From Escherichia coli (GTDB taxonomy: Bacteria; Pseudomonadota; Gammaproteobacteria; Enterobacterales; Enterobacteriaceae): 64,000 nucleotides of DNA. How positions within the stretch are numbered: position 1 is the first letter of the stretch; the number at the start of each line of letters is the position of its first letter. The stretch lies in assembly GCF_029227855.1 (NCBI RefSeq), contig NZ_CP074356.1. One strand, given 5' to 3'. Position numbers: made by a program. Shown in pieces: positions 23,901 through 26,900 of the stretch.

Positions 23901-26900
23901 ATCCACGCCGCGCGTCGGCTCATCGACAATCAATACTTGCGGCGAGGCTTCCAGGCATTTGGCAATCAGGATTTTTTGCTGGTTGCCACCGGATAAGGTC
24001 CGTGCAGCTTGTTCCGGTTGGTTAAATTTAATATTCAGCGCCCGACGATAACGTTCCAGCGTGGCATTATCTTTCGCGGTTTTCGCCCAGAATCCACGAA
24101 GGTTATGAGTGAGGGCGCAGACGTTCCACGCCAGTGAAGCATCGAGATTCAGTCCGGATGACTGGCGATCTTCCGGCAGATAAACCAGACCGCGCAGTAA
24201 ACGTTCTCCGGTGGATAATCTATTGATCTCTTTACCATTCAGCATAATGCGTCCGCCACGCAAAGTACGCAGACCATAGAGCGTCTCGGCCAGTTCTGTG
24301 CGTCCGGCTCCCACCAGCCCAGCCAGGCCCAGAATTTCTCCGGCATTGAGCGTCAGGCTGACATTCCTGAAACCTTCGCCGGTCAGATTTTCCAGTGTCA
24401 GCACCGGCGTTCCCGCGGCATGTTGTGGGCGGTTGCCAGGTAATTCCAGCCATAATTTTTGGCTGGCAGAGAGCGATTTTTCCCGTAGCGCTGGCGTGAT
24501 GGCCTGAATAATGTCGTCGGTAGACAGTTCGCTGGTTTTGCCGCTTAAGGCGATGGTTCCGTCGCGCATCACGCTAATTCGATCGGCAATCTGGCGAATT
24601 TCCGGCAGCTTATGCGAGATAAAAACAATACCCACGCCAGTAGCAAGCAGCTCTTGCAAGCGACTAAACAAGCGTTCGGTTTCCGCAGGGGTAAGCGAGG
24701 CGGTAGGTTCATCGAGGATCAGAATCCGCGAGTCGCGCATCAGCCCGCGGAGGATTTCCACCATTTGGCGATCGGCGACATCCAGCGATCCTGCCAGACT
24801 ATGCAGATCAAACTGGCAGCCCAGCGCCGCCAGCAAGTTATTCATTTTCTGTATGGAGAGTTGTTTTTTTGCCAGACCAAACAGAATGTTTTCTTTTATC
24901 GACAGGCTTGGGAAAAGCAGCGGTTCCTGGGGAACGAGATAAATACCCAACTGATGAGCATGAACTGGCGTTAATCTGGTGTAGTTGTTGCCCCCAATCT
25001 CAAGCGTACCGCTATCAGCAGGGGTAATACCGGCAATAATCTTCATTAACGTCGATTTACCGGCACCATTGCCGCCGAGCAGGGCGTGGACCTCCCCCTG
25101 GTGCAACGTAAAATCGATGCCTTTCAGGACATTAACCCCTGAATACTGTTTATAAACCGAGCGGGCGCAAAGTAGCGGTAACGCGCGGGTATCACTCGTT
25201 TGCATACTTCCCCCGTTCAGTTTTGCAGGTGAGTTTTGAACAAATGTATTTCTGCTTTTAATTTGTTCATAACCTTAGGTGGACATTGCACATATTTCCG
25301 ACGAATAGATCACAATTTATGCTATTTTGATTTTCAAGGTTGCGTTTGTTCATGCTCGTAGAGTCAAACTGTGGTTGCCATCACAGATATAAATGCGCAA
25401 GAACTGAACAATTGCATTAAAGATTTAAGTATGTTCAAAGTGAAGAATGAATTATGACAATCAACGATTCGGTAATTTCAGAACAGGGAATGTGTGAAGA
25501 AGAACAGGTCGCGCGGATTGCGTGGTTTTACTACCACGACGGGCTGACCCAGAGTGAGATCAGCGATCGTCTCGGCCTGACCCGTTTGAAAGTGTCGCGA
25601 TTACTGGAGAAAGGGCATCAGTCCGGCATTATTCGCGTACAGATTAATTCTCGCTTTGAAGGCTGTCTGGAATATGAAACACAATTACGTCGTCAGTTTT
25701 CGCTGCAACATGTCCGGGTGATCCCAGGGCTTGCGGATGCTGATGTCGGCGGGCGACTAGGGATAGGCGCGGCGCATATGTTGATGAGTTTACTTCAACC
25801 ACAACAGATGCTGGCGATTGGTTTTGGCGAGGCAACCATGAATACGCTGCAACGCTTAAGTGGTTTTATTTCGTCACAGCAAATTCGCCTGGTCACGCTC
25901 TCCGGTGGAGTCGGTTCTTATATGACGGGTATCGGGCAGCTTAACGCGGCGTGCAGTGTGAATATTATTCCGGCTCCGTTGCGGGCATCCTCCGCTGACA
26001 TTGCCCGTACGCTAAAAAATGAAAATTGCGTCAAAGATGTTCTGCTAGCCGCGCAAGCAGCGGATGTGGCGATTGTCGGCATTGGGGCTGTGAGTCAACA
26101 AGACGACGCAACAATCATTCGCTCCGGCTATATCAGCCAGGGCGAACAGTTAATGATTGGGCGAAAAGGGGCTGTTGGCGACATTTTAGGCTACTTTTTT
26201 GATGCAAAAGGTGACGTTGTCACGGATATCAAAATACATAACGAACTGATTGGCTTACCTTTAAGCGCGCTGAAGACTATTCCCGTCCGGGTTGGCGTTG
26301 CAGGGGGAGAAAATAAAGCCGAAGCAATTGCCGCTGCAATGAAAGGCGGTTATATCAACGCACTGGTTACCGATCAGGATACAGCAGCGGCGATTTTACG
26401 TAGTTAAATTTGCATGACCTTATTACCGGGAATGATGGAGAACGTACAGAGGAACAGACAGAACGCATAAGCCGAGGATAATCTAATGGCTCGACTCTTT
26501 ACCCCTTCTGAATCAAAGAACTACCTGATGGCGCTGGATGCAGGTACCGGAAGTATTCGGGCTGTGATATTCGACCTGGAAGGCAATCAAATAGCAGTGG
26601 GACAGGCGGAGTGGCGGCATCTGGCAGTACCGGACGTTCCTGGTTCTATGGAATTTGATCTCAACAAAAACTGGCAACTGGCGTGTGAGTGTATGCGCCA
26701 GGCGCTGCACAACGCCGGCATAGCCCCGGAGTATATCGCTGCCGTTTCGGCATGTTCGATGCGCGAAGGCATTGTTTTATATAACAATGAAGGAACACCG
26801 ATCTGGGCCTGCGCCAATGTGGATGCCAGAGCGGCGCGCGAAGTTAGCGAACTTAAAGAACTGCACAGCAATACCTTTGAAAACGAAGTTTATCGCGCCA

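Follow-up and report, generated by a model that had tools for sequence, protein, structure and literature searches.

The window analysed here, a 64,000-nucleotide stretch of the Escherichia coli chromosome, contains the lsr switch for uptake of the quorum signal AI-2, a known and well-studied locus. The genes and the control region between them are arranged as follows.

23670–25205, minus strand: lsrA, ATPase of the AI-2 ABC transporter and first gene of lsrACDBFG (511-aa ORF; annotated as lsrA in the closest genome)
25206–25453, no strand: lsrA–lsrR divergent intergenic control region, complete, 248 bp (ORFs; RefSeq annotation of the closest genome)
25454–26407, plus strand: lsrR, SorC-family repressor (translated ORF)
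26486–28078, plus strand: lsrK, downstream of lsrR (RefSeq annotation of the closest genome)

In the closest RefSeq genome, lsrGFBDCA occupies the minus strand and lsrR-lsrK the plus strand. The LsrR encoded in the window matches the LsrR of PDB entries 4l5i and 4go1 with an E value of 2e-202 and carries the Pfam domain Sugar-bind (PF04198). An earlier note on this DNA had assigned positions 25206–25453 to the lsr control region, and this interval is exactly the gap between the start of lsrA (25205) and the start of lsrR (25454); the four elements named in that note were all found in place when the sequence was read directly. The E. coli lsr regulatory region was reportedly described by Xue et al. 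in 2009 (Cell Res 19:1258). According to the literature, LsrR represses both lsr promoters, phospho-AI-2 releases LsrR, and CRP is required; the same regulators appear in PMC5137460, where the legend of Figure 2 gives the order of elements as p-lsrR-box, CRPII, CRPI and p-lsrA-box.

The repeat unit of the control region is a 33-bp palindrome, TGAACA-N21-TGTTCA, present in two full copies and one degenerate copy.

25237–25269, plus strand: Box A, candidate LsrR operator, TGAACAAATGTATTTCTGCTTTTAATTTGTTCA (37.7 bits, the highest PWM score found in the window; the inverted repeat noted earlier)
25320–25352, plus strand: Box M, middle box, TGCTATTTTGATTTTCAAGGTTGCGTTTGTTCA (right arm intact, left arm decayed)
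25405–25437, plus strand: Box R, second full 33-bp candidate LsrR operator, TGAACAATTGCATTAAAGATTTAAGTATGTTCA (PWM score 34.8 bits)

Box A contains TGAACAAAT at 25237–25245, a 15-nt spacer at 25246–25260 and ATTTGTTCA at 25261–25269, just as the earlier note had described its inverted repeat. The third repeat copy of that note, TTTGTTCA, is indeed present at 25345–25352, where it forms the right arm of the degenerate Box M rather than an operator on the lsrR side. Box R, a full copy that is 73% identical to Box A in direct register, had been missed. The 64 kb hold two arm pairs of the type TGAACA-N13..27-TGTTCA where 0.05 would be expected, both of them in the lsrA–lsrR region; the hexamers TGAACA and TGTTCA occur five times within these 248 bp, against 0.16 expected from their window-wide density. 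The 9-mer, allowing at most one mismatch, shows no enrichment across the window (29 found, 25.9 expected), so the signal resides in clustering and pairing, not in the word itself. Boxes A and R score 35–38 bits, whereas the next best PWM match in the 64-kb window reaches 12 bits; Box M scores 0.4 bits. We rejected the 12-bit match (9956–9988) as a further operator: it lies inside yneK and is probably a chance occurrence. Box M sits exactly +83 from Box A, and the distances of 83 bp (A–M), 85 bp (M–R) and 168 bp (A–R) correspond to 8, 8 and 16 helical turns.

We compared 69 lsrA–lsrR regions from Enterobacterales, whose LsrR sequences share 64–97% identity. Arms with at most one mismatch were paired 116 times at N21, 13 times at N20 and essentially nowhere else between N8 and N35; shuffled regions gave about 0.1 matches per spacer. 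Box A was found in every region (69/69), and other boxes occur only at +83 and at +166–168 from it. The latter slot, that of Box R, is occupied in nine genera. At the +83 slot, the score exceeds 8 bits in 48% of loci, compared to 0 of 12,099 background positions; Box M is strong in several other genera and degenerate in Escherichia. In many genera (Yersinia, Rahnella, Hafnia), Box A is the only one. An alignment of 19 intergenic regions, which does not depend on the motif search, served as a check. In it, all 12 arm positions of Box A and 11 of the 12 in Box R are invariant, compared to 29% of positions in the region as a whole; in Box M, 4 of 6 positions are invariant in the right arm and 0 of 6 in the left. 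The manner in which boxes were gathered inflates the arm frequencies of the PWM; the inner positions and the alignment test alone are free of this bias. T9, a position not used in selection, is conserved at 0.93, which extends the half-site to TGAACAWWT, the 9-mer noted earlier. Together with G10, T13, T14, A19 and A25, it belongs to a set of inner positions that are more weakly conserved than the arms. Read as a SorC/DeoR-subfamily operator, in which each half has two sub-sites separated by roughly a helical turn, a box thus shows strong outer sub-sites and weaker conservation further in.

The pattern extends beyond the Enterobacterales. A Pasteurellaceae-type contig has the same layout of boxes and CRP sites as the window, and a locus of the Bacillus cereus group (40% identity) carries AGAACA-N21-TGTTCT, 23 nt from a divergent ABC ATPase gene. 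Among distant homologues at 45% identity, two loci with adjacent DeoC and FGGY-kinase genes (L083 and L084) have TGATCA repeats in place of the motif, and a third (L085), on a short GC-rich contig, has neither lsr neighbours nor the motif.

The LsrR of the window aligns to Bacillus subtilis DeoR (8r7y) with an E value of 2.9e-28, at low overall identity. The recognition helices read TRLKVSRLL in LsrR and SRPTVSRLL in DeoR, with both arginines kept: R44 and R49 of LsrR, which are invariant in 17 LsrR sequences, pair in the alignment with the DeoR arginines of the segments ISR and VSR. Given a five-residue numbering offset, these are likely the residues called R34 and R39 in the DeoR paper. DeoR makes base-specific contacts in 5'-TTGAACA-3' (PMC11229326).

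On the basis of the sequence comparisons, the TGAACA/TGTTCA repeats are very probably LsrR binding sites. The earlier note had proposed them as operators on both the lsrA and lsrR sides; the invariant arms, the strict N21 spacing and the likeness to DeoR support this, with the amendment that the site on the lsrR side is Box R, which it had not listed and which holds both published LsrR motifs of that side. We consider it highly improbable that the repeats are instead sites of another factor, or promoter elements. The left arm of Box R does overlap a -10-like AACAAT, the right arm of Box A adjoins a candidate -10, and TGAACA loosely resembles a -35 hexamer, but promoter elements would not yield perfect inverted arms, a fixed 21-bp spacing and three slots. 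Moreover, the motif accompanies lsrR in Enterobacterales, in Pasteurellaceae and in the B. cereus group, and the LsrR homologue DeoR contacts a matching site. The gap in score between Boxes A and R and the rest of the window also speaks against another factor.

Several further elements lie between and around the boxes.

25299–25314, no strand: CRP site 1, 'CRPI' of the literature, centre 25306.5 (minus-strand TGTGA-TCTATT-CGTCG; one good half)
25370–25385, no strand: CRP site 2, 'CRPII' of the literature, TGTGG-N6-TCACA, centre 25377.5 (9/10 core positions; conserved halves)
25272–25277, minus strand: candidate -10 of PlsrA, TAAGGT, conserved as TAnnnT (-12 to -7 if CRP site 1 is at -41.5)
25407–25412, plus strand: candidate -10 of PlsrR, AACAAT, in the left arm of Box R (-12 to -7 if CRP site 2 is at -41.5; invariant)
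25285–25290, minus strand: -10-like hexamer TGCAAT, site of published promoter-up mutations (mutations of PMC5137460 mapped on the sequence)
25211–25216, minus strand: lsrA Shine-Dalgarno sequence, CGGGGG, or CGGAGG in other genera (conserved block CC(T/C)CCG)

CRP site 2 is the near-consensus site reported in the earlier note. It reads TGTGG-TTGCCA-TCACA, matches 9 of 10 core positions, corresponds to CRPII of PMC5137460 and lies at a fixed, conserved offset. The match in itself is not significant, as the window holds five sites with at most one mismatch against 2.0 expected, and the CRP assignment therefore rests on conservation. Relative to Box A, a CRP-like site is present at +131 to +134 in 37 of the 69 regions and at +62/63 in 29, so that both CRP sites sit between boxes at fixed offsets. 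In the alignment, 6 of the 10 positions in the halves of CRP site 2 are invariant, as are 4 of 5 in the good (right) half of CRP site 1. The latter site, absent from the earlier note, is one-sided, with minus-strand TGTGATCTA as its one perfect half, and GATCAC at 25308–13 within the site is invariant. CRPI has been placed beside TGTGCAAT, which published promoter-up mutations change to TGTACAAT or TGTGTAAT (PMC5137460). A consensus scan of the region found no sigma-70 promoter, and none would be expected of activator-dependent promoters. Class II CRP geometry would place the start of PlsrA at about 25264–25266 and that of PlsrR at about 25419; the TA at 25276–77 in the candidate -10 of PlsrA is invariant. 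Box A would span about -4 to +29 of PlsrA.

The literature describes LsrR sites differently. There, LsrR is taken to read loose AT-rich blocks, AAAACT-N7-AAAACTGAA on the lsrA side and AACAAT-N7-AAGATTTAA on the lsrR side, and the palindromes would be incidental or otherwise used.

25216–25237, minus strand: published p-lsrA-box, AAAACT (25237–25232) and AAAACTGAA (25224–25216) (strings as quoted in PMC8487509)

In the statements quoted in PMC8487509 and PMC5137460, these motifs are reported to be footprint-derived and necessary for binding. Later papers apply AT-rich, T-tract or TCCG/GGAAAA motifs to other claimed LsrR targets, with inconsistent descriptions; published reports of LsrR binding and its release by phospho-AI-2 concern promoter fragments rather than the 33-bp boxes. 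Both published p-lsrR-box motifs (AACAAT at 25407–12 and AAGATTTAA at 25420–28) lie wholly within Box R and thus do not discriminate between the two descriptions. On the lsrA side, the motifs (25216–24 and 25232–37) lie beside Box A, sharing one base with it, which goes halfway towards the refutation named in the earlier note, LsrR footprints outside its repeats. None of the 21 positions of this p-lsrA-box is invariant, and their mean major-allele frequency of 0.59 is below the 0.73 of the whole region, whereas the adjacent Box A arms are invariant throughout. A substitution of AAAACT (25232–37) would at the same time abolish T1 and the flanking TT of TTGAACA. The strict N21 spacing in 69 regions and the DeoR structure have no explanation if LsrR reads the AT-rich blocks, and we regard that description as improbable.

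We instead consider it likely that the two CRP-dependent promoters are each shut by an LsrR tetramer bound to a 33-bp palindromic operator, Box A in one case and Box R in the other. PlsrA (leftward) and PlsrR (rightward) would be arranged back to back and both depend on CRP. The operator occupied by the tetramer would have TGAACAWWT as its half-site and 21 bp between its outer arms. Box A would cover the start region of PlsrA, and Box R would cover the start region of PlsrR together with its -10. To judge from SorC-family structures, the tetramer would be a dimer of dimers that places one DNA-binding-domain dimer on each half-operator, which would make the tetramer necessary for stable binding. 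Phospho-AI-2 made by LsrK would loosen the tetramer and cause LsrR to fall off; cAMP-CRP centred at 25306.5 and 25377.5 could then activate both promoters. Box M, between the CRP sites, would be one of three slots 83 and 85 bp apart. As only its right arm survives in Escherichia, it would be no more than a weak site here, filled cooperatively. In this scheme, the elements, their statistics and conservation and the DeoR homology are observed; we infer the bases touched by LsrR, the transcription starts and the role of Box M.

The placement of the boxes raises the question of whether the LsrR tetramers of the three boxes, which would all face the same side of the helix, cooperate through looping or a higher-order complex and also trap or exclude CRP. 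The box distances are fixed across genera at exactly 83 bp and at 166–168 bp, and both CRP sites lie between boxes. In the Pasteurellaceae-type contig, the distances from Box M to CRP site 2 and from Box M to Box R are both ~11–12 bp shorter, roughly one helical turn, a change that would keep the helical phase. The fixed spacing may, however, just reflect the geometry of each promoter and its CRP site. Given that many genera have Box A alone, that Box M is decayed in Escherichia, and that we found no evidence for LsrR tetramers associating with one another, cooperation appears rather unlikely, and repression of each promoter by a tetramer on its own operator is the reading we prefer. Library mutations reported in PMC5137460 at -214 to -208 (25413–19, positions 9–15 of Box R), from the only published mutational data that we found, were considered as a sign of Box R-mediated repression of PlsrA and set aside: selection took place in LW6, a strain with lsrR knocked out, so these mutations cannot act through LsrR and are silent on cooperation.

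A more comprehensive proposal combines these elements, and we put it forward tentatively, as a possibility that falls somewhat short of even odds. The LsrR operator would be TGAACAWWT-N15-AWWTGTTCA, with one tetramer per box and up to three phased boxes (0, +83 and +168) interleaved with two CRP sites. The layout would reach from Enterobacterales to Pasteurellaceae, with AGAACA arms in the B. cereus group and arms in common with the DeoR operator, and the AT-rich motifs, including the lsrA-side box, would be mis-specified. If this is true, many of the claimed direct LsrR targets that were picked by AT-rich motifs (ahpCF, katG, cysP, cysN and phoP) would need re-examination.

The lsr switch serves as the model of how AI-2 is taken up and its signal quenched, and synthetic biology uses it as a part. 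Its broad logic is settled: LsrR represses, phospho-AI-2 relieves the repression, and CRP is needed. The locus does not represent a new kind of system. A 33-bp operator that is strict, conserved and plausible in structural terms would allow clean prediction of the regulon, rational promoter engineering and a direct test of cooperation between the three boxes. A more precise definition of the operator, together with the finding of three boxes in phase, constitutes a modest refinement of a known system that we did not find in the searchable literature. We likewise found there no palindromic or looping description of LsrR sites; since that literature lacks most subscription journals, RegPrecise and RegulonDB, the gap is weak evidence of novelty.

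Compared to the E. coli lsr region of the literature, the window agrees in locus, element order and regulators, and every published motif string is present. The difference lies in the binding unit: the published model has LsrR sites composed of 6-bp and 9-bp AT-rich blocks, whereas the conserved unit here is a 33-bp palindrome, outside which the published lsrA-side block falls. The middle, third box slot has no description that we could find in the searchable literature on the lsr region.

Divergent pairs of CRP-dependent promoters combined with a sugar-phosphate-responsive repressor are a known arrangement, and looping between multiple operators occurs in lac, gal and the E. coli deo system. 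Like lsr, systems of this type have CRP sites between divergent promoters and several helically phased operators; as to looping, the conservation of spacing is the one thing that hints at it for LsrR. CggR of B. subtilis, from the SorC/CggR subfamily, is comparable to LsrR as proposed here: its tetramer occupies an operator of two halves, about 45 bp long, and a phosphosugar releases it. CggR differs in its winged-helix DNA-binding domain, its GC-containing direct repeats and an operator located downstream of the transcription start.

The closest parallel at the operator level is the DeoR operator of dra-nupC-pdp in B. subtilis (8r7y, 7bhy; PMC11229326), the outer arms of which, TGAACA...TGTTCA, are those of the boxes described here. 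This 39-bp operator reads ATTGAACA...TGTTCAA (PMC11229326), and its left half, TTGAACAAAAT, is closely similar to the LsrR half TTGAACAAATG. Its spacer is 24 bp, compared to 21 in the lsr boxes, and it overlaps the -35 region as the sole operator, in contrast to the two or three boxes at lsr. The effector of DeoR, deoxyribose-5-phosphate, also differs from that of LsrR. DeoR binds as a tetramer and does not bind half-operators alone (PMC11229326); two dimers make up this tetramer, each half-operator is occupied by one dimer of DNA-binding domains, and the helix xRxxVSRLL is common to DeoR and LsrR.

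The region 25206-25453 is the precise gap between two divergent genes in the open reading frames (ORFs) of the window. The protein encoded at 25454-26407 (plus strand) matches PDB entries 4l5i and 4go1 (E=2e-202), carries the Pfam Sugar-bind domain and is, by homology, LsrR. A 701-bp query (25000-25700) gave matches in 4,202 of 5,426 complete E. coli genomes, at which lsrA and lsrR are annotated; no genome in that collection is identical over the 701 bp, most showing 95–99% identity and the best 99.9%. The closest genome carries lsrGFBDCA on one side and lsrR, lsrK, an autotransporter gene and hipBA on the other. 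Because lsrA and lsrR flank it and the plus-strand protein is LsrR, the region is the canonical E. coli lsr control region, a system that is already known. Further along, the window holds an intact 1822-aa ORF (28554-34022, plus strand), whose equivalent in the closest genome is annotated as an ECSE_1600-family autotransporter and is followed by hipB-hipA.

Flanking genes and repeat elements of the lsr control region
23670-25205, minus strand: lsrA, 511-aa ORF
25237-25245: TGAACAAAT, left half of the inverted repeat described in the earlier note
25261-25269: ATTTGTTCA, right half of that repeat, after a 15-nt spacer
25345-25352: TTTGTTCA, third copy described in the earlier note
25370-25385: TGTGGTTGCCATCACA, CRP site described in the earlier note (CRP2)
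25454-26407, plus strand: lsrR, 317-aa ORF

Direct reading of the sequence located all four elements of the earlier note, but these are only part of the pattern, and a second full box at 25405-25437 had been missed. A repeat finder pairs 25237-25269 (Box A) with 25405-25437 (Box R) as 33-nt direct repeats in the same register (73% identity), both with perfect TGAACA and TGTTCA arms 21 nt apart. Within the 64 kb, TGAACA-N13..27-TGTTCA occurs only as these two boxes, against 0.05 expected, and the 248-bp region contains five arm hexamers against 0.16 expected. Taken by itself, the 9-mer is not enriched across the 64-kb window, and a single CRP-like match there is within chance expectation. The only other notable positive match to a 33-bp box matrix in the window, at 9956-9988 (minus strand, 12.1 bits), falls within yneK when coordinates are transferred from the closest genome, and is probably due to chance.

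Among 80 LsrR loci (one genome per species, 64–97% protein identity, all Enterobacterales), lsrA lies divergently upstream in 69 regions, the window counted among them. Scanning these regions for TGAACA-Nk-TGTTCA (at most one mismatch, k = 8-35) returned 116 matches at k=21, including 79 without a mismatch; k=20 gave 13, other spacers almost none, and shuffled sequence about 0.1 per spacer. Box A, adjacent to lsrA, is present in 69/69 regions. A weight matrix placed further boxes at just two positions relative to Box A, +83 (above 8 bits in 48% of regions) and +166..168 (25%); 0 of the 12,099 remaining positions exceeded 8 bits. A separate alignment of 19 regions, built without using the motif, gives the same picture.

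Invariant positions in the 19-region alignment
Box A arms: 12/12
Box R arms: 11/12
Box M (25320-25352) right arm: 4/6
Box M left arm: 0/6
Whole lsrA-lsrR region: 29%

Position 9, which played no part in box selection, is T in 93% of boxes, and its conservation gives the half-site TGAACAWWT, the 9-mer of the inverted repeat. Differences from other Escherichia are confined to the box spacers, never the arms (for example TTTCTG vs TTTTTG in Box A, and AAGTAT vs AAATAT in Box R). Loci from Yersinia, Rahnella, Hafnia, Ewingella and Prodigiosinella (such as L027, L036, L065 and L071 of our collection) have Box A alone at the thresholds used, with lsrR still divergent from lsrA; lsrR autoregulation may be different in these genera.

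In the window, the +168 slot is Box R and the +83 slot is 25320-25352 (Box M), whose right arm is the third copy and whose left arm reads TGCTAT. The matrix score of Box M is 0.4 bits here, and the middle box reaches 13–32 bits in Kluyvera, Superficieibacter, Serratia, Photorhabdus, Xenorhabdus and Morganella. One assignment of the earlier note thus needs correcting: the probable operator on the lsrR side is Box R, which was not listed, and the third copy is part of a middle box that is vestigial here. The slots are spaced 83 and 85 bp apart, eight helical turns each and 16 overall, a phasing that would put LsrR bound at all of them on one face of the DNA. This spacing is the one observation in favor of cooperation or looping between slots, which is possible, but in many genera Box A is the only box, and in Escherichia Box M has decayed.

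The LsrR motifs of the original footprinting paper, as far as they are quoted in PMC8487509 and PMC5137460, coincide with the repeats on one side of the region only. The lsrR-side motifs, AACAAT and AAGATTTAA, map to 25407-25412 and 25420-25428, both within Box R. The lsrA-side motifs, AAAACT and AAAACTGAA, map on the minus strand to 25232-25237 and 25216-25224, outside the repeat, adjoining Box A with one base in common, a position that challenges the operator interpretation; none of the bases in this block is invariant among the 19 aligned regions, and its conservation is below that of the whole region. Replacing AAAACT, the approach taken in studies of this kind, would also take out T1 of TGAACA and the TT flank, which may account for a binding defect. 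Recent papers define LsrR sites otherwise, by T-tracts, TCCG/GGAAAA motifs or AlphaFold3 models. No palindromic description was found in the searchable literature, curated regulon databases lying outside that search. The sharper operator definition, the link to the DeoR operator and the three-slot layout, likewise not found in that literature, are a modest refinement, which such databases may already contain.

The CRP site of the earlier note is real: both halves of CRP2 (centre 25377.5) are conserved. In CRP1 (25299-25314, centre 25306.5), one half is perfect (TGTGATCTA, minus strand) and conserved as GATCAC. Many genera show CRP-like sites at +62/63 and +131..134 relative to Box A, and the order in the window matches the published map (p-lsrR-box, CRPII, CRPI, p-lsrA-box; PMC5137460). 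Elsewhere in the window, a good CRP-like site, TGTGATCGTAATCACG, lies at 17622-17637, corresponding to the uxaB-yneE intergenic region, and further ones (at most one mismatch) at 6065, 47332 and 47546. A consensus scan of the control region found no promoter. If -41.5 is taken as the position of each CRP site relative to the promoter that it faces, the -12..-7 hexamer of PlsrA would be TAAGGT (25277..25272, conserved as TAnnnT), with a start near 25264-25266, and that of PlsrR AACAAT (25407-25412, invariant), with a start near 25419. Box A would span about -4 to +29 of PlsrA, and Box R about -14 to +19 of PlsrR.

The most likely mechanism is that one LsrR tetramer on each full box would block RNA polymerase at its promoter. 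Phospho-AI-2 reportedly weakens the LsrR tetramer (the claim in the title of Wu et al. 2013). Once the tetramer was weakened, LsrR would leave the DNA, because binding would need both arms, and cAMP-CRP would then activate PlsrA and PlsrR.

Most up-mutations of a PlsrA promoter library fall at -214..-208 (PMC5137460), that is, at 25413-25419 (TGCATTA), Box R positions 9-15. Long-range repression of PlsrA from Box R was rejected as an explanation: the clones had been selected in an lsrR knockout (PMC5137460), so the effect on leftward expression is independent of LsrR. These bases fall between the predicted -10 and start of PlsrR, and relief of divergent-promoter competition is one possibility. 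Other PlsrA up-mutations, TGTGCAAT to TGTACAAT (8–14-fold) and to TGTGTAAT, were interpreted by the authors as loss of a CytR site (PMC5137460). They convert TGCAAT (25285-25290, minus strand; mutated base 25289) to TACAAT or TGTAAT, both nearer the TATAAT -10 consensus. It seems simpler to suppose that they create or strengthen a -10 upstream of Box A than that they remove a CytR site; this would also account for the variants staying LsrR-repressible.

Conservation, the N21 spacing and kinship with DeoR make it very probable that the repeats were, in substance, rightly proposed as LsrR operator arms. LsrR aligns with B. subtilis DeoR (8r7y, E=2.9e-28), a SorC-family repressor whose structure has been solved on DNA (PMC11229326). 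In the DNA-binding domain alignment, the recognition helix reads TRLKVSRLL in LsrR and SRPTVSRLL in DeoR; both arginines are retained, and both are invariant in 17 LsrR sequences. DeoR makes base-specific contacts within 5'-TTGAACA-3' and binds its 39-bp operator, ATTGAACAAAATTTCAATTACCAATTTACATATGTTCAA, as a tetramer, each half-operator taking one domain dimer; isolated half-operators are not bound (PMC11229326). The outer arms of the LsrR boxes and of this operator are identical and the left halves nearly so (TTGAACAAATG), but the box centre is 3 bp shorter (N21 vs N24).

At two other loci (L083 2408-2623 and L084 2235-2450), an LsrR homologue (45% identity) lies beside DeoC-type aldolase and FGGY kinase genes; its upstream region repeats TGATCA in place of TGAACA, which may reflect a shifted specificity. 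A Bacillus cereus group locus (L086, GCA_002570705.1), whose regulator is 40% identical to LsrR, carries AGAACATTTTTTGAGAAAATGATTATTTGTTCT (AGAACA-N21-TGTTCT) at 2844-2876; in this lsr-like cluster the box precedes the divergent ABC ATPase gene by 23 nt. On a Pasteurellaceae-type metagenome contig (L082), the regulator is 57% identical to LsrR, and its protein cluster is named LsrR of Haemophilus/Rodentibacter/Aggregatibacter. There, 412-603 repeats the five-element layout of the lsr control region (box, CRP half, middle box, CRP site, box). The first element is a Box A-like site whose left arm, TTAACA, lacks one base of TTGAACA. A TCACA half stands at the offset of CRP1, and the right arm of the middle box falls at exactly +83. 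A second CRP-like site and a left arm resembling that of Box R come next, this distal pair lying about 11–12 bp nearer, roughly one helical turn. To judge from their sequences, the Bacillus cereus group and Pasteurellaceae-type loci agree with LsrR reading TGAACA-type arms.
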